Of a stretch of 64,000 bases of DNA, positions 45,638 through 52,259 are shown piece by piece; position 1 is the first letter of the stretch, and the number at the start of each line of letters is the position of its first letter. Under the pieces are notes generated by a model. It was not told the DNA's origin. It did no database searches and saw only the letters and a list, made by a program, of their open reading frames with translations. The DNA lies in the NCBI GenBank assembly GCA_046291695.1, contig JBKBSO010000008.1, positions 5,419 to 69,418 on the forward strand, in the 5' to 3' direction. Origin of the DNA: Bacteroidia bacterium. Its GTDB lineage: Bacteria > Bacteroidota > Bacteroidia > UBA7662. A program made the position numbers and the translations under genes.

Positions 45638-45853
45638 TTATGCTTTTGGGCGAAACATGATGGCGTAAATTTCCACCAGAAAGCCTGCCATTATCAAAAT
45701 AGGCGCTAAAGTAATTTTGGTAAAACCGTAAATATCTTCAGTACCAATCATAAGGATATTCCCCAAAACAATCAGTCCGAGTCCGATAAGCATCAAGGTG
45801 TAATTTTTTTTGCTGAACAACAGCACACCGGTTTCTTTGATTTGATTTTTCAT
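45638..45853 (-). CDS. DUF3098 family small membrane protein
   Basis: FSKKNY.LM.IG, two TM helices; conserved position after ftsX. Confidence 0.75.
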   Translation of the reverse strand: MKNQIKETGVLLFSKKNYTLMLIGLGLIVLGNILMIGTEDIYGFTKITLAPILIMAGFLVEIYAIMFRPKA

Positions 45854-46731
45854 TAGTATAAATCGTCAATTTTTTGTCTAAGATATTTGGAAATGGCAAA
45901 CCAAGTGCTCAGTAGGCTAATCACCAAACCGAGACTCAACATACCAAGACCTATGTATAAGGTGTAAGTATCGTGCCTCAATTCGCGCAACTCAGGCAAT
46001 TGGCGGTCGCTGAACGAAAGCACCGCATACAACAGGCCTCCGGCAACCAATACACTTAACACGCCTTGCAATAAGCTTTTAAATAGATACGGCTTCTTAA
46101 TGAACCAGGAGGTTGCCCCTACCAGCTGCATGCTTTTGATGAGAAATCTTTGAGAATAAAGCGATAATCTAATTGAATTATTGATTAGCGTAATGGTAAT
46201 GAGCAGCAATAGCAAGCTAAAGGCGGCTATTACCAAGGCAACAGTACGTAAGTTTTTGTTGATTAAATCCAATACGTTTTCCTGATAATACACCTCCTTT
46301 ACCACCGGATTAGCGAGTAAAAAAGCTTTGATTTGGCCCAAACTATCCGTGTTGGCAAAGTCGGCACTTACAGTCATATTAAATGAGGCCAACAACGGAT
46401 TGTAGCCCAAAAAATCAACGAAATTTTCTCCTAAATCTTCCGTCAGCACTTGAACGGCTTCTTCTTTCGATACAAAATCGAGTTGTTTCACATAGGAATA
46501 GGCTCGCAGTTGGCGCTCCAATGTCTTAATATCTTTTAATTCAGCTTCTTCCGTAATGAATATCTGTACCTGTAGATTCTCCTTTACATGGTCGGATAGC
46601 ATTTTCGCATTCATTACCAATACGCTGAACAAGCCCAATAAAAAGAGCACTAGCGATATGCTAATTACCGCCGTTACCGTAGTACGACGTGCTTTCCGTC
46701 GAAAATATTTGAGTTGCGATTGTTCTGACAT
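45853..46731 (-). CDS. ftsX: Cell division permease FtsX
   Basis: ISLVLFLLG, SKEEA, GYNPL, NSIRL, MQLVGAT. Confidence 0.93.
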   Translation of the reverse strand: MSEQSQLKYFRRKARRTTVTAVISISLVLFLLGLFSVLVMNAKMLSDHVKENLQVQIFITEEAELKDIKTLERQLRAYSYVKQLDFVSKEEAVQVLTEDLGENFVDFLGYNPLLASFNMTVSADFANTDSLGQIKAFLLANPVVKEVYYQENVLDLINKNLRTVALVIAAFSLLLLLITITLINNSIRLSLYSQRFLIKSMQLVGATSWFIKKPYLFKSLLQGVLSVLVAGGLLYAVLSFSDRQLPELRELRHDTYTLYIGLGMLSLGLVISLLSTWFAISKYLRQKIDDLY

Positions 46732-46854
46732 ACCAAATTCAGCGCTAAAATAAGACTAATTATCGCCAATCAAAGTGCCCTTAAGGCTTTTTAGCATAAC
46801 AAAGCCAAACAAAGCCTGCTTTTGCTATTTTTGCTATTCAATTTTTTTCAACGG

Positions 46855-49803
46855 ATGTCAGAATATAAGTTTAACGAGCAAGAAGCTGAATGGCAGTTAT
46901 ATTGGCTAAAAAATGAAGTCTATAAAACGGAAATGGGCGCACAAAAACCTAAATACTTTGTGCTCGATATGTTCCCTTACCCTTCTGGCGCCGGTTTGCA
47001 TGTTGGTCATCCACTAGGGTACATTGCCAGCGATATTGTTGCCCGCTACAAACGCATGTCTGGCTTTCAAGTGCTTCATCCCATGGGATACGATGCTTTC
47101 GGGCTTCCCGCCGAACAATATGCCATCCAAACCGGTCAGCATCCGGCCATTACCACAGATGTTAACATTAAGCGATACCGTGAACAGCTCGATAAAATCG
47201 GTTTTTGTTTCGATTGGTCACGCGAAGTAAAAACCTGCGAACCCGAATATTACCGCTGGACGCAGTGGATATTTCTTCAGCTATTTGAAAGTTGGTATGA
47301 TAAACAGGCCAACAAGGCCCGCCCCATCAGCGAATTGCAAACCATTCTAAACCAGCAAGGTAATCTACAGCTTCAAGCCGTGTGCGACGAAGAAACACCG
47401 GACCTTACTGCCACCGACTGGCAAAAAATGAACGAACACGACCGCGCACAAATCCTCATGTATTACCGCTTGGCTTACCTGGCCGAAGCACGGGTAAATT
47501 GGTGTGCTGCTTTGGGTACTGTATTGGCCAACGACGAAGTGAAAGATGGCCTTTCGGAGCGCGGAGGACACCCGGTAGAAATCCGTATGATGAAGCAATG
47601 GATGATGCGCATAACCGCCTATTCACAACGGCTACTGGATGGATTGAATGAAATCGATTGGTCCGACGCCATTAAAGAGCAGCAACGAAATTGGATTGGA
47701 CGTTCCGAAGGAGCTTCCGTTTTTTTTCAACTCCAAGGTTACGATGAAAAAATTGAAGTCTTTACCACACGCCCCGATACCATTTTTGGAGTAAGCTTTA
47801 TGGTGTTGGCTCCCGAGCATGAGCTGGTAGCTAAAATCACCACCAGCACACAAAAAGCAGAAGTAGAAGCCTACATCGACAAAACTAAAAACCGGTCGGA
47901 ACGAGAGCGTATGGCCGATGTAAAGTCGGTAAGTGGTGTCAATACCGGAGCCTTTGTTGAACATCCCTTTACTGGCGTACCCATTCCTGTTTGGATTGCC
48001 GATTATGTTCTGGCCGGTTATGGTACCGGTGCGGTAATGGCGGTACCCGGTGGCGATGAGCGCGATTGGCGTTTTGCCCGGCATTTCGGCTTGCCCATCA
48101 TCGAGGTAGTAGAAGGAAGCAACATCGAAGAAGCTGCCAATCCGTCGAAAGACGCCCTCATGATCAACAGCGACTTCCTCAACGGCTTGGTAGCGCGTGA
48201 GGCCATTGGCAAGGCCATTGCAGCCCTCGAAGCCAAAGGTATGGGAAAAGGCAAAATCCAATTCCGTTTGCGCGATGCCATTTTCAGTCGTCAGCGCTAT
48301 TGGGGCGAACCCGTGCCCATTTATTTCGAAAACGGCATAGCCAAAGCCGTAGAAGAAAAGGACCTGCCCCTTAAGCTGCCTGTTGTAGACAAATACCTGC
48401 CCACCTCCGAAGGAGAACCCCCTTTGGCCCGGGCCGAAAACTGGACCTACAAAGGACACCCGCTCGAAACCACCACCATGCCCGGCTGGGCAGGATCGAG
48501 CTGGTATTTCCTGCGCTATATGGACCCGCACAATACAACCGAATTTGCATCGCGCCAAGCCACCGACTTCTGGAATCAGGTAGATTTGTACATGGGCGGC
48601 TCAGAACATGCAACAGGTCACTTATTGTATGCCCGTTTTTGGACCCATTTTTTGTGCGACCGTGGCTTCATAGGCTTCCGTGAGCCCTTTAAAAAGCTGG
48701 TGAATCAGGGGATGATTCAGGGGGTGTCTCATTTCCTATATCGATTTACTGTTCAAAATGATGATAGAATTAAAGAAAGTGCAAATTTTGCTTTAGGAAT
48801 AGATAGGAATATAGAAGAAGCTATACGCAAGCATTTTAATGATTCGGATTTTCAAGTGCTATTTTCTGCTGACCTGTATGATGAAGCTCAAATAGATCAT
48901 CCGGACTATTGGAAAGCATTTAGGATTGACACTAATTATACTGTCGCATTAGATGCAAAAAGAGGTGAACTTAAAATTGACGAATTCTGGGGTAACGGCT
49001 TAAATGTCGATGATTTCGATAAACTGGCTATTGTGACAAAAGGAGGATTTTATGCGAATGGCATCTTTCATACAGTATATGAAGGAGCTAGCAATTCTGT
49101 GTTAACGTTTTCAGAAGTCGAAAAAATGTCGAAATCCAAATGGAACGTCGTCAACCCCGACGACATCATTGCCCAATACGGAGCCGACACCTTGCGCATG
49201 TATGAAATGTTTTTGGGGCCGCTCGAAGACAGCAAGCCCTGGGACACCAAAGGCATTGAAGGCGTCTATCGCTTTTTACAGAAGTTCTGGCGACTGTTCC
49301 ACGAAAAAGCTGAACTGTCGCTCGACCCTGCTCCTGCCACCGAAGCCGAGCTTAAGCTTTTGCATCGCACCATCAAAAAAATCACAGACGACATAGAACG
49401 TTTCTCGTTCAATACCTGCGTAAGTAGTTTCATGATTTGCATCAATGAATTGCAAAGCTTGAGTTGCCGAAAATCCGAAGTACTGCATCCATTGGTGCGA
49501 TTATTGGCGCCTTTTGCCCCACACATAAGCGAAAGTATGTGGCGCCTTTTAGGCGAAGATGGCTCGGTACATCAGGCCACCTTCCCTGGCTATCAAGAAA
49601 AATACCTGATCGACGATACCTTTGATTATCCGGTGCAGGAAAATGGCAAAATGCGATTTAACCTGAGTATGCCTAAACAGGCTGAAAAGGCTGAACTGGA
49701 AAAAATGGCATTGGGTAACGAACGAGTACAGCAATTGTTATCTGGTCGAACATTGAAAAAAATCATCGTGGTGCCGGGTAGAATTGTTAATCTTGTTGTT
49801 TAA
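46855..49803 (+). CDS. leuS: Leucine--tRNA ligase with an expanded, AT-rich leucine-specific domain
   Basis: MFPYPSGAGLHVGH (HIGH), FTTRPDT, KMSKS at 49123; -7 box TATTTTTG at 46826-46833. Confidence 0.99.
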   Translation: MSEYKFNEQEAEWQLYWLKNEVYKTEMGAQKPKYFVLDMFPYPSGAGLHVGHPLGYIASDIVARYKRMSGFQVLHPMGYDAFGLPAEQYAIQTGQHPAITTDVNIKRYREQLDKIGFCFDWSREVKTCEPEYYRWTQWIFLQLFESWYDKQANKARPISELQTILNQQGNLQLQAVCDEETPDLTATDWQKMNEHDRAQILMYYRLAYLAEARVNWCAALGTVLANDEVKDGLSERGGHPVEIRMMKQWMMRITAYSQRLLDGLNEIDWSDAIKEQQRNWIGRSEGASVFFQLQGYDEKIEVFTTRPDTIFGVSFMVLAPEHELVAKITTSTQKAEVEAYIDKTKNRSERERMADVKSVSGVNTGAFVEHPFTGVPIPVWIADYVLAGYGTGAVMAVPGGDERDWRFARHFGLPIIEVVEGSNIEEAANPSKDALMINSDFLNGLVAREAIGKAIAALEAKGMGKGKIQFRLRDAIFSRQRYWGEPVPIYFENGIAKAVEEKDLPLKLPVVDKYLPTSEGEPPLARAENWTYKGHPLETTTMPGWAGSSWYFLRYMDPHNTTEFASRQATDFWNQVDLYMGGSEHATGHLLYARFWTHFLCDRGFIGFREPFKKLVNQGMIQGVSHFLYRFTVQNDDRIKESANFALGIDRNIEEAIRKHFNDSDFQVLFSADLYDEAQIDHPDYWKAFRIDTNYTVALDAKRGELKIDEFWGNGLNVDDFDKLAIVTKGGFYANGIFHTVYEGASNSVLTFSEVEKMSKSKWNVVNPDDIIAQYGADTLRMYEMFLGPLEDSKPWDTKGIEGVYRFLQKFWRLFHEKAELSLDPAPATEAELKLLHRTIKKITDDIERFSFNTCVSSFMICINELQSLSCRKSEVLHPLVRLLAPFAPHISESMWRLLGEDGSVHQATFPGYQEKYLIDDTFDYPVQENGKMRFNLSMPKQAEKAELEKMALGNERVQQLLSGRTLKKIIVVPGRIVNLVV

Positions 49804-49811
49804 CCGTCAAA

Positions 49812-52259
49812 ATGCTGCGCAGCCTATTCATATGTATCCTTAGCTTCACTGGCCTCATCGGGCATGGTTGGGCACAGGATACATCCAGCATCAACAGCCT
49901 CATCAATCGCTGTTACAGCTGGCAATATGAAGCGCCCGATAGCATTTTAATGCTGGCACCTGGGGCTTTAGTAGCTTCTAAGGCCATCCATTTTCAGCCG
50001 GGCATTGCCAAATCCAATTTTATCATGGGGCATGCCCATTACGAAATGCATCAATACGATTCGGCCATAATGTATATGCAGGAAGCCATTGGACATTTCC
50101 AGGGAAAAAGATTTTTTGCCAATATTGCAGCCGCCTATAATATTACTGGGGTTTGTTATAAAAATTTAGCTGATTATACACGTGCCCTGAATGCGCAACT
50201 TGCCGCCATCAGCTTATTTGAAGAAATAAACGACACTGCAGGTATCGTCATATCGTACAATAACTTGGGCATATTGTATAACGACCAAAAAAAGCTTCAA
50301 GAGGCAGAAACCTGGTTCTGGAAAGGGCTTAAGCTAGCTGAACAAGGACAAAATCCTTATTTATTAGTTACTAGCCAGTCTAATATGGCAATGAACCTAC
50401 ACTCCCAGGAGCGATACTCGGAATCACTTGATATATTCCGAAAAGTCTTACAATTCGATCTTTTAGATGGCAATGAATACGAAATCGGAGCCTCCTACAA
50501 CAATGTGGCCTCTAGCTTGCTTAAACTAGATCGTCTTGATAGTGCACTTTACTATATCGACAGCTCTATTTATTACAAAGAAATAAGCGGCGATCGCTTT
50601 GGAATGGTAACCTCCCTTACCAATAAAGCACAGGCCTACATGCAAAAGAATATGCCTCGATTGGCCATCAACACCCTCGATACCGCCATTCAAATCGCAG
50701 AAAGCATTCAAGCCAAAAAACTACAAAGTGAAATCTTTTTAAAGTATCACCAGAATTACGAATTGCTTGGCATTTCCGATTCTGCCTTATACTACTATAA
50801 GCGCTTCCATCAACTTAGCGATAGCTTGCTGAACCAAGAAACAGAATTAGCCTTAGCCAACGTTCGACGACAATACGATTTAGAAAAAGTAGATCAAGAG
50901 CTCAGCAAAAAGAACCTTGAAATAAAAAACATCAAGGAAATACAACGATTTTACCTTTTCGGATTTTTAACCATTATGGTCATTGCCTTTATGGCCATGC
51001 TCGGTTTTTTTCGATTTCGTAAACTGAACAAAGTGTTGCGCCAAAACGAGATCGACCTAAAAAATACCAACCTAATCCTACAACGAGTAAACGAACAATT
51101 AGAACAAGCCCGCGACGAAGCCGAGTCGGCTAACAAGGCCAAATCAGCCTTTTTGTCCAATGTAAGCCATGAAATCAGAACCCCGCTAAACGCCATACTC
51201 GGCATGCTCGACCTGATTCATGAAACCCTGAAAAAAAACAATCAGGAACGCGTGGTCGAAACCATACGACATTCAGCAAACAGCTTACTGCACATCATCA
51301 ACGACCTGCTCGATTTAAGCAAAATAGAAGCCGGCAAAATAAGCTTTGAACACAAAAGCTTTAATTTGACCTCTCTAATGCAACAACTAGAGCTCTCACT
51401 GAATAGTTTGGCAACAGACAAAGGCTTGCATATAATCACTGAAATCGACCCTGAAATCCCTGATTTCCTAACCGGAGACCAGTTTCGCCTGAACCAAATT
51501 TTGCTCAATTTAGGTGGAAATGCTGTAAAATTCACCCCAGAGGGTTCTATCAAGATCAGCGTTAACCGACTTGATTCCGAAACAGATAACGAACAGTGTC
51601 AGCTGCTTTTTGAGGTTAAAGACACAGGAATTGGCATCAGCGATGAACAAATTCAGCGTATATTCCAGCGGTTTAGTCAGGCTGATGAAAACATCTCACG
51701 TAAATACGGAGGTACAGGCCTGGGCTTGGCCATCAGTAAAAAATTGGTAGAATTACAAGGAGGCAAAATAGGCGTAAACAGCGTTACGACCCAAGGTTCT
51801 AACTTTTGGTTTGAACTCAAGTTCAAAATTTCAGAAAGTCAAGATGTTGTTACAACCGTTGTGGATTTAGCCGATGACGACCGATTAAAAGGTATGCGTG
51901 CCCTGGTTATTGATGATAATGTATTGAATGTAAAGCTCGCTGCGCAAATCTTGAATCGCTGGGAAGTTCAAGCCATAACTGCATTAAGCGGCAAAGAGGC
52001 CCTTGAATACTTGCGCAAAGGCGAGCGTTTCGATTTTGTATTGCTCGACATCCACATGCCCGAAATGAATGGCTTTGAAACCCACAATCGGATGGTACGT
52101 GATTACAAACTCAATTGCCCGGTAATTGCCCTTACAGCAGACACATACGAAGAAACCATGCAACAAATCCGAGAAGCCGGCATTGCTGCAGTAGTAATTA
52201 AGCCTTACAGGCCAGCTGAACTTAAAAAAACATTGTTTCAGTTTTTAAAGGCATATTGA
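49812..52259 (+). CDS. TPR-sensor hybrid histidine kinase / response regulator
   Basis: Periplasmic TPR repeats, one TM, SHEIRTPLN, NLGGNA, DTGIG, GGTGLGL, receiver DDN..LDIHMP. Confidence 0.92.
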   Translation: MLRSLFICILSFTGLIGHGWAQDTSSINSLINRCYSWQYEAPDSILMLAPGALVASKAIHFQPGIAKSNFIMGHAHYEMHQYDSAIMYMQEAIGHFQGKRFFANIAAAYNITGVCYKNLADYTRALNAQLAAISLFEEINDTAGIVISYNNLGILYNDQKKLQEAETWFWKGLKLAEQGQNPYLLVTSQSNMAMNLHSQERYSESLDIFRKVLQFDLLDGNEYEIGASYNNVASSLLKLDRLDSALYYIDSSIYYKEISGDRFGMVTSLTNKAQAYMQKNMPRLAINTLDTAIQIAESIQAKKLQSEIFLKYHQNYELLGISDSALYYYKRFHQLSDSLLNQETELALANVRRQYDLEKVDQELSKKNLEIKNIKEIQRFYLFGFLTIMVIAFMAMLGFFRFRKLNKVLRQNEIDLKNTNLILQRVNEQLEQARDEAESANKAKSAFLSNVSHEIRTPLNAILGMLDLIHETLKKNNQERVVETIRHSANSLLHIINDLLDLSKIEAGKISFEHKSFNLTSLMQQLELSLNSLATDKGLHIITEIDPEIPDFLTGDQFRLNQILLNLGGNAVKFTPEGSIKISVNRLDSETDNEQCQLLFEVKDTGIGISDEQIQRIFQRFSQADENISRKYGGTGLGLAISKKLVELQGGKIGVNSVTTQGSNFWFELKFKISESQDVVTTVVDLADDDRLKGMRALVIDDNVLNVKLAAQILNRWEVQAITALSGKEALEYLRKGERFDFVLLDIHMPEMNGFETHNRMVRDYKLNCPVIALTADTYEETMQQIREAGIAAVVIKPYRPAELKKTLFQFLKAY

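Follow-up and report, generated by a model that had tools for sequence, protein, structure and literature searches.

Aminoacyl-tRNA synthetases are commonly regarded as slowly evolving housekeeping markers, and one of them, leucyl-tRNA synthetase (LeuRS), is also a validated antibacterial target. Why does the LeuRS gene of an uncultured member of the Bacteroidota carry an AT-rich block of 133 codons immediately before the codons of its KMSKS catalytic loop? The gene, leuS, lies in a stretch of 64,000 nucleotides (nt) of a Bacteroidia bacterium (GTDB lineage UBA7662; assembly GCA_046291695.1, contig JBKBSO010000008.1, positions 5,419 to 69,418 of the forward strand), which we call the window and to whose first letter all leuS coordinates refer. 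An earlier note on this DNA had interpreted the block as a leucine-specific (LS) domain swapped in from an AT-rich donor through conserved flanks. We consider it probable that the block is one allele of a multi-allelic LS cassette, exchanged by homologous recombination and kept by selection. The genome and LeuRS of the window are designated G000, and P- and L-numbers designate proteins and loci, respectively, of its relatives. The features on which the argument depends are as follows.

46855..49803, + strand: leuS, leucyl-tRNA synthetase, 982 amino acids (aa); an open reading frame (ORF) with the Pfam domains tRNA-synt_1, PF13603 and Anticodon_1
48703..48723, + strand: left recombination anchor, codons for NQGMIQG (aa 617-623); conserved, with the breakpoint between L079 and L080 inside it
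48724..49122, + strand: LS domain cassette of type T2_133 (aa 624-756); AT-rich, with a G+C content at third codon positions (GC3) of 0.23
49123..49137, + strand: KMSKS catalytic loop motif (aa 757-761), from translation and alignment
49138..49164, + strand: right recombination anchor, codons for KWNVVNPDD; breakpoint about 25 nt past KMSKS (L079 versus L080)

LS domain types and the leuS tree

When the genomes of 40 relatives were searched, most alignments to the window LeuRS broke at about residue 631-635 and restarted at about 748-753. A search seeded on the conserved residues 300-618 recovered about 45 LeuRS that are 75-99% identical over those residues and 930-991 aa in total length. LS domains were assigned to types with minimum BLAST thresholds of 35% identity and 70% length coverage, which gave 43 types among 113 usable sequences, distant LeuRS included, and ten types among the 49 closest, so the site does hold a diverse pool of cassettes, as the earlier note had supposed. 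In the genus and family there are at least ten forms, the canonical one of 80 aa and others of 103-138 aa, which can barely be aligned to each other; across the order, LS length ranges from 71 to 155 aa.

These types are scattered over the tree of the flanking sequence. In a maximum-likelihood phylogeny of the 49 sequences, inferred from the flanks only, the ten types require 20 changes where the minimum is nine; counted by type, there are nine changes for T1_127, eight for T0_80 and four for T2_133. A flank tree of 24 sequences likewise places the carriers of the 133-aa form in three clades, mixed with carriers of 107-aa and 127-aa forms, each with 100/100 support. Near the tips of the tree, sister proteins differ in type:

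P0012/P0014: T0_80 and T1_127, flank aa identity 99.3%
P0002/P0022: T2_133 and T1_127, flank aa identity 99.1%
P0035/P0036: T3_106 and T1_127, flank aa identity 98.8%
P0016/P0017: T3_106 and T1_127, flank aa identity 97.4%

Alleles less than 30% identical to each other thus coexist on flanks that are at least 99% identical. Reticulation is also apparent within types: the cassette of P0036 is 85% identical to that of P0032, with flanks at 86.5%, and 44% identical to that of P0034, with flanks at 94.7%. Between loci L032 and L033 the proportion of synonymous sites that differ (pS) is 0.45 in the flanks and 0.74, which is saturated, in the cassette. Of 410 pairs of other Bacteroidota LeuRS whose flanks are at least 85% identical, 348 differ in LS type, some at a flank identity of 98%; on this comparison, the exchange pattern recurs beyond the genus.

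Breakpoints

The edges of exchange can be located in DNA. Apart from the cassette, where no alignment is possible, about 0.5% of positions differ between the 9-kb loci of P0012 and P0014 (L079 and L080), two sequences from the same study. The left breakpoint falls in the NQGMIQG codons, where the run of identical sequence ends, and the right one lies about 25 nt (about eight codons) past KMSKS. Two more distant comparisons, L031 with L006 and L002 with L033, have flanks at 80-95% nt identity that fall to about 30-50% exactly within aa 629-762. Edges in conserved flanks are sharp in the pairs L079/L080, L031/L078 and L082/L081, and in the last of these the import begins at the start of leuS and takes in everything up to the far edge of the cassette. 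In three sister pairs, which were picked for their LS difference, the sole large import within 9 kb includes the LS domain. The comparisons made here show that LS forms have been replaced as a unit by homologous recombination in the conserved coding flanks, both between lineages and between near-identical strains.

When nine syntenic 9-kb loci are compared, divergence peaks over the 450 nt of the cassette (0.41-0.55, gaps making up about 25%) and is lowest in the stretches that border it, at 0.14 to the left and 0.08 to the right (150 nt). The left anchor (N617-G623) is invariant in a 79-sequence alignment except at Q622. Substitutions in the flanks are nevertheless linked to cassette type. 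The residue after KMSKSK (codons at 49138-49143) gives KMSKSKR in all 12 T1_127 genes and KMSKSKW in all 35 others, and GMITG is linked to types T15/T16 (two genes). Judged by these linked substitutions, the exchanged unit extends slightly into the "conserved" motifs, and the Trp/Arg linkage suggests contact or co-adaptation with the LS domain. Among members of the genus, the approximately 100 codons 3' of the cassette (49138-49450, aa 762-860) have the lowest synonymous diversity in leuS, 0.24-0.35 versus about 0.41 elsewhere, which may come from repeated co-transfer with cassettes or from constraint at the nucleotide level.

The recombination that moves the LS segment is of the ordinary homologous kind, anchored in the NQGMIQG codons and in the stretch past KMSKS, and with a history of its own the cassette has a base composition that does not follow that of its host gene.

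An enlarged LS domain with a predicted fold

The block occupies the position of an LS domain, forming a discrete module between the last core helix (ending in NQGMIQG) and the KMSKS loop. The interval between the GMIQG motif, which begins at 48709, and KMSKS, at 49123, comprises exactly 133 codons (48724..49122). Canonical LS domains of related Bacteroidota have 71-81 aa, and that of G000 has 133. Sequence alignments to every solved LeuRS end at residue 625 and restart after the domain. The canonical skeleton can still be recognised by eye in the 133-aa form, with the motifs xSxFxYR and FSADL, a (V/I)D(I/V)xxV…LD strand pair and a terminal …EVE, between which segments have been added. The BLAST tie of T2_133 to canonical LS domains is weak and runs via T1_127 (36-38% identity over 55 aa).

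A full-length AlphaFold2 (AF2) model, made from the 79-sequence alignment, has a mean predicted local distance difference test score (pLDDT) of 81.5. In it the LS domain is a predicted alpha/beta module of nine strands (622-633, 666-670, 687-691, 696-698, 703-706, 724-728, 731-734, 737-740 and 749-757) and two helices (651-660 and 708-713). The LS fold of Thermus thermophilus has five strands and two short helices. The pLDDT of the module is 75-92 across most of 651-750, and the loop at 639-650 is of low confidence. Modelling the LS domain alone from a 5-sequence alignment gave a pLDDT of about 38, which is unusable, and the full-length model was used instead. By its position, its motifs and this model, the block is best described as a folded, enlarged LS domain. 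The observations of the earlier note on the number of codons, on the identity of the interval as the variable LS domain, on its enlargement and on the remnants of the canonical skeleton with extra loops all hold.

A Pfam scan of seven cassette types, with E-values up to 1, returned no family apart from one chance match to DUF354, and a sequence search of the PDB with the LS domain alone gave no significant match. One segment, QNDDRIKESANFALGIDRNIEEAIRKHFNDSDFQVLFSADL (window 48754-48879, LS residues 11-52), has a weak likeness to a HEAT/alphaRep-type repeat of an artificial protein (PDB 8AW4, E = 0.014). This likeness is probably due to chance, as there is no Pfam HEAT match and AF2 is unsure at 639-650.

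Base composition of the cassette

In windows of 150 nt, G+C content is 0.34-0.38 over 48700-49149, compared with 0.50-0.59 at 48325-48699 and 0.46-0.53 at 49075-49374. GC3 is 0.23 in the LS domain and 0.52 and 0.53 in the N-terminal and C-terminal flanks; in 30-codon windows it is 0.13-0.37 within the block and 0.50-0.77 directly outside it at both edges. The genome has a G+C content of 0.470 and a mean gene GC3 of 0.506 (standard deviation 0.072). Among its 1263 ORFs of at least 300 aa, just 0.13% of 134-codon windows have a GC3 of 0.24 or less, and only two within-gene dips are larger than that of leuS (-0.28 in comparison with its remaining codons). The codon adaptation index, calculated from genome usage, is 0.655 in the LS domain, a value as low as which occurs in 3% of genome windows, and 0.755 in the flanks. 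Codons of the kinds listed in the earlier note are enriched in the block: AGA/AGG encode four of six Arg residues in the LS domain and one of 46 in the flanks (Fisher p = 2.7e-4), ATA four of nine Ile residues versus six of 46, and TTA four of nine Leu residues versus six of 72. The AT-rich dip and the codon bias reported there are thereby borne out.

Amino-acid composition does not explain the dip, because it is chiefly third codon positions that lose G+C. Selection for translational accuracy and relaxed constraint can likewise be rejected as the sole cause: flank codons with an equal lack of conservation have a GC3 of 0.40, against 0.22 in the LS domain (p = 0.002), and the equally divergent stretch at aa 150-200 holds a GC3 of 0.50-0.53. 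Weak constraint accounts for the AT-richness only in part.

Could the block instead be a single recent transfer into the G000 lineage, from an AT-rich donor outside the group and not yet ameliorated? Its GC3 of 0.23 lies far below the genome mean, its compositional edges are sharp and sit at conserved motifs, and relatives do exchange sequence through these flanks, all of which would suit such an event. The distribution of the type does not. T2_133 was found by a word search on LS residues in just four other LeuRS, with block identities of 97, 73, 65 and 59%, and all four are at the syntenic ftsX / leuS / hybrid-kinase locus. The type has thus been seen solely in five LeuRS of this uncultured hot-spring and freshwater Bacteroidota genus, and no AT-rich carrier of it was found. 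With a 143-aa LS segment as query, phmmer returned no match at E <=0.001 among 1.84 billion cluster representatives, a result that shows little besides rarity, since representatives at 50% identity conceal the few T2_133 carriers.

The age of the dip also argues against a recent transfer. All T2_133 relatives dip, with GC3 values of 0.24, 0.30, 0.36 and 0.42 against 0.52-0.63 in their flanks. Synonymous sites between T2_133 lineages are saturated (pS 0.65-0.94), and an LS offset of -0.20 to -0.29 is nevertheless kept in four lineages; the dip is thus long-standing and stable, not the mark of a recent import that has yet to ameliorate. Moreover, all cassette types in the genus are AT-rich, the canonical 80-aa form included (GC3 0.24-0.42). 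We accordingly regard a single recent transfer as quite improbable, and the AT-rich donor invoked by the earlier note is not borne out. Its broader proposal of a swap through conserved flanks fares better. It is supported for the locus, given the 20 changes among ten types and the mapped breakpoints, but not for G000 as a recent recipient. The sole hint of import into G000 is that its LS domain is nearest to that of P0002 (71%), although the flanks of P0002 are the most distant (79%); with only four T2_133 lineages, an unrooted topology cannot conflict with that of the flanks, and there is consequently no topological test of import into G000. T2_133 may be an old type of the genus.

Cassette GC3 stays at about 0.23-0.49 whereas flank GC3 spans 0.38-0.63, and the one does not follow the other. 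Such decoupling of cassette and host gene in base composition agrees with a separate history of the cassette in a shared pool. In two lineages (g2 and g3) the LS type is apparently fixed, and these show no dip. The low G+C content may be inherited from the pool, or may represent a local equilibrium, for example through less GC-biased gene conversion in a block too divergent to pair.

Other strong GC3 dips occur in the G000 genome, on contig C16 from 23076 (+), at about codons 410-543 of a 2037-aa ORF, at C48:99172 (+) and at C20:49862 (+). Among these other dips, one 134-codon window has a GC3 of 0.05 inside a gene of overall GC3 0.45. They could reflect repeats, or other foreign or variable modules within these genes.

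Assembly and programmed variation

A chimera of two organisms joined at conserved motifs would also produce sharp edges in the window leuS. The sample is metagenomic, and leuS contigs of other organisms share the short conserved anchors. Against this, a 61-kb Logan contig of depth 134 from a hot-spring metagenome (run X1) matches 48400-49500 without difference, and contigs from a different study (run X2), covering 48673-48835 and 48876-49155, span both junctions without difference. The same gene, 99% identical, is also present on a JGI contig (L077). The junctions are thus upheld by the contigs of two runs, and an assembly artefact is extremely unlikely.

Sharp block boundaries and many alleles are also features of programmed variation within a genome, for which a dedicated mechanism would be responsible: silent donor cassettes like those behind pilin variation, a diversity-generating retroelement, a homing element or intein, or a site-specific shufflon. 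Some related LeuRS do have an in-frame DUF559 endonuclease-like domain, but it is in the CP1 domain and not in the LS domain. In blastn and tblastn searches of the whole G000 genome, the cassette, the other types and both anchors matched the leuS locus only, and the Pfam scan found no Hint/intein or other domain in the seven cassette types. The differences between alleles comprise indels and all base changes, unlike the adenine-specific pattern of diversity-generating retroelements, and the boundaries are coding motifs, not repeats. Cassette-only fragments were absent from the viral contigs among the matches examined, which were the two strongest of three. For these reasons programmed variation, too, has very little to recommend it.

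Carriage of cassettes by phages was considered and rejected. Viral contigs gave three matches (L083, L084 and the weak L085), and the two strongest are to full-length leuS. These IMG/VR contigs encode LeuRS of 945 aa (L083, 2207-5044) and 930 aa (L084, 2252-5044) with shorter LS segments, and most likely represent host sequence that accompanies a provirus, rather than cassettes carried by a phage.

Selection on the LS domain

The ratio of nonsynonymous to synonymous substitution rates (dN/dS) within an LS type is about 0.10 for G000 versus L031 and about 0.06 for L032 versus L033. Taken with the predicted fold, these low ratios indicate that the cassette is a functional protein segment. On a shorter time scale the pattern differs: between G000 and the near-identical strain L077 there are four nonsynonymous and no synonymous substitutions in the LS domain and seven and 15, respectively, in the flanks (p = 0.022), which agrees with relaxed or positive selection over short times.

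One alternative is that the whole pattern is a neutral by-product. The LS domain, as a weakly constrained surface module, would diverge fast and acquire or shed loops in every lineage, and background recombination, acting genome-wide, would now and then carry its versions across lineages without diversifying selection or any antagonist; exchange would be visible solely at the LS domain because the rest of leuS is too conserved, and AT-biased mutation would prevail where codon selection is weak. LS domains do vary in length and sequence, are absent from some active LeuRS and can be replaced by a tetrapeptide (PMC3643597). The substitutions between G000 and L077 fit relaxed constraint, unconserved flank codons are also lower in GC3 (0.40 versus 0.51-0.55), and the flank tree covers long times, with saturated synonymous sites. 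Four results speak against this explanation. Purifying selection acts within types on a module with a predicted fold. Alleles less than 30% identical on flanks at least 99% identical are not expected under neutral coalescence. The GC3 of the LS domain is far below that of equally unconserved flank codons, with aa 150-200 unaffected. The sole large 9-kb import in each of three sister pairs includes the LS domain, albeit in pairs picked for that difference. On balance we judge a purely neutral origin unlikely, though deserving of serious consideration.

From the presence of deep alleles on near-identical backgrounds we infer diversifying or frequency-dependent selection, which would act on the exposed module and keep the alleles side by side. 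A candidate source of such selection is a LeuRS antagonist, whether an inhibitor, a toxin or a phage factor. The earlier note had likewise proposed, as possible drivers, a LeuRS-targeting toxin, antibiotic or phage factor or a gain of accessory function, all of which are hypotheses. More specifically, the LS domain might be a conflict interface, at which antagonist recognition and negative frequency-dependent selection would keep at least ten deeply divergent, recombining alleles in circulation, both inside species and between them. Candidate antagonists include an agrocin-84-like, tRNA-dependent Trojan-horse inhibitor, an interbacterial toxin, and a phage protein that hijacks or blocks LeuRS. 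We offer this more specific proposal tentatively, as possible but doubtful.

Co-evolution with the tRNA substrate was also considered and is unlikely, because tRNA-Leu(GAG) and tRNA-Leu(UAG) are 100% identical across genomes with three cassette types; tRNA-Leu(CAG) is 94-100% identical across the same genomes (three of the five isoacceptors were compared).

Several points weigh against a selectively maintained, recombining cassette. Diversifying selection on the LS alleles is putative, and no antagonist, partner or accessory activity was found, nor any known domain in the seven cassette types searched with Pfam. Vertical descent of G000's own cassette is possible. The sister pairs were picked for differing at the LS domain, and their imports were mapped within 9 kb. 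Finally, all relatives are metagenome contigs or metagenome-assembled genomes, in which chimeric joins through the conserved anchors are conceivable case by case. Chimeras are countered by the recurrence of several flank/cassette combinations on 4-6 independent contigs, by the uniqueness of each cassette sequence, which is not a copy of a co-assembled neighbour, and by the agreement of different assemblers. With these points taken into account, a multi-allelic LS cassette that is exchanged by homologous recombination and kept by selection is the reading that we favour.

The leuS gene and its neighbourhood

Apart from its LS domain, the window LeuRS has the following features.

46999..47010, + strand: HIGH-type motif HVGH (aa 49-52), from translation; its columns are invariant in the 79-sequence alignment
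47686..48225, + strand: CP1 editing domain (aa 278-457), PF13603, E = 6.7e-61
49351..49689, + strand: anticodon-binding domain (aa 833-945), PF08264

The HIGH and KMSKS motifs, a CP1 editing domain of the LeuRS type and the anticodon-binding domain place the protein among class Ia LeuRS of the bacterial type. A Foldseek search with the AF2 model matched the solved LeuRS structures 2BTE, 5OMW and 4AQ7, from T. thermophilus and Escherichia coli (E about 1e-69, template-modelling score 0.73-0.84). By its domains and predicted fold the protein is an ordinary bacterial LeuRS. It is the sole full-length LeuRS match in a genome that is 100% complete and has five tRNA-Leu genes. An alternative in-frame TTG start is present upstream of leuS at 46822.

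The gene is flanked by an ftsX-like permease gene (45853-46731, - strand) and by a gene for a TPR-containing hybrid histidine kinase / response regulator (49812-52259, + strand). Gene order around leuS, with DUF3098, bacA, truB and ribF upstream, is kept in all genus-level relatives. The organism belongs to the uncultured Bacteroidota of hot-spring and freshwater metagenomes.

The CP1 domain carries insertions in some other Bacteroidota. In a group of Flavobacteriales LeuRS of 1136-1195 aa (P0067, P0077 and P0100; loci L058-L063), an in-frame CP1 hairpin insert of about 145-175 aa holds DUF559 (PF04480, a Vsr-like endonuclease) and in one case PF18741. The insertion point corresponds to about 47740-47750 of the window (G000 aa 293-298, FQLQGYD|EKIEVF). 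Other relatives have differing short inserts there, and G000 has none.

Implications

If our interpretation is correct, strains of one species carry unrelated-looking LS forms that are exchanged as a unit. The LS domain would then tolerate wholesale natural replacement, and its forms would constitute a natural library for LeuRS engineering and for studies of the tuning of aminoacylation and editing. The environment would probably discriminate among LS forms, and the purpose of a variable LS domain could be tested by swaps of natural alleles. The persistent AT-richness of the cassette would be an example of long-term composition decoupled from the host gene. If the LS domain should also prove to be a conflict interface, it would represent an immune-like polymorphism within a core translation enzyme. 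For phylogenetics and strain typing, leuS would be a risky marker in Bacteroidota unless the LS block is masked.

Comparison with known systems

Three aspects of this locus have been published for other systems: variability of the LS domain between distant bacteria (PMC3643597), whole-gene homeoalleles of aminoacyl-tRNA synthetases (PMC3191353) and mosaic genes in general. A literature search turned up no report that alleles of the LS domain are exchanged, as a domain, among members of one species.

In the bacterial LeuRS of T. thermophilus (1H3N/2BYT) and Escherichia coli (4AQ7/4ARC), the LS domain is a beta-rich compact module that positions the KMSKS loop and the 3' end of the tRNA (PMC3643597), and it has a role in tRNA binding and in the aminoacylation/editing cycle (Yan et al. 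2013, PMC3643597). The domain described here is at the same site in the catalytic domain, directly before KMSKS, and is about 50-60 aa longer than the canonical form of related Bacteroidota. The published variability is between distant taxa, whereas here unlike forms alternate among strains with flanks at least 99% identical.

The LS domain is not indispensable in all LeuRS: AgnB2 of Agrobacterium radiobacter K84 and the LeuRS of Helicobacter pylori lack it, so LeuRS can function with the module replaced or missing (PMC5059758). Addition of an LS domain to AgnB2 by engineering lowered the half-maximal inhibitory concentration of TM84, the warhead of agrocin 84 and a natural LeuRS inhibitor, 34-fold (Chopra et al. 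2016, PMC5059758). By analogy, this case provides a precedent, and only a precedent, for an effect of the LS domain on susceptibility to an antagonist. AgnB2 is a whole second LeuRS, borne on a plasmid for self-immunity; here, an allelic domain appears to be exchanged within a chromosomal housekeeping gene.

Homeoalleles of aminoacyl-tRNA synthetases are deeply divergent functional variants that coexist and are replaced by biased transfer and recombination (Andam and Gogarten 2011, PMC3191353), as appears to be the case here. Those are whole-gene variants, whereas at this locus an internal domain of 240-420 nt is exchanged in at least ten forms while the remainder of leuS agrees with the organismal tree.

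Mosaic genes, among which the exchange of hsdS target-recognition domains is a further example, are the last system to be compared. In penA/pbp mosaics the mechanism is the same as that proposed here, with divergent inner blocks imported, breakpoints in conserved sequence and incongruent trees (PMC10926701). The penA/pbp and hsdS mosaics are under known selection, by antibiotics and for phage/restriction specificity, respectively, whereas the mosaic gene described here encodes a core translation enzyme.

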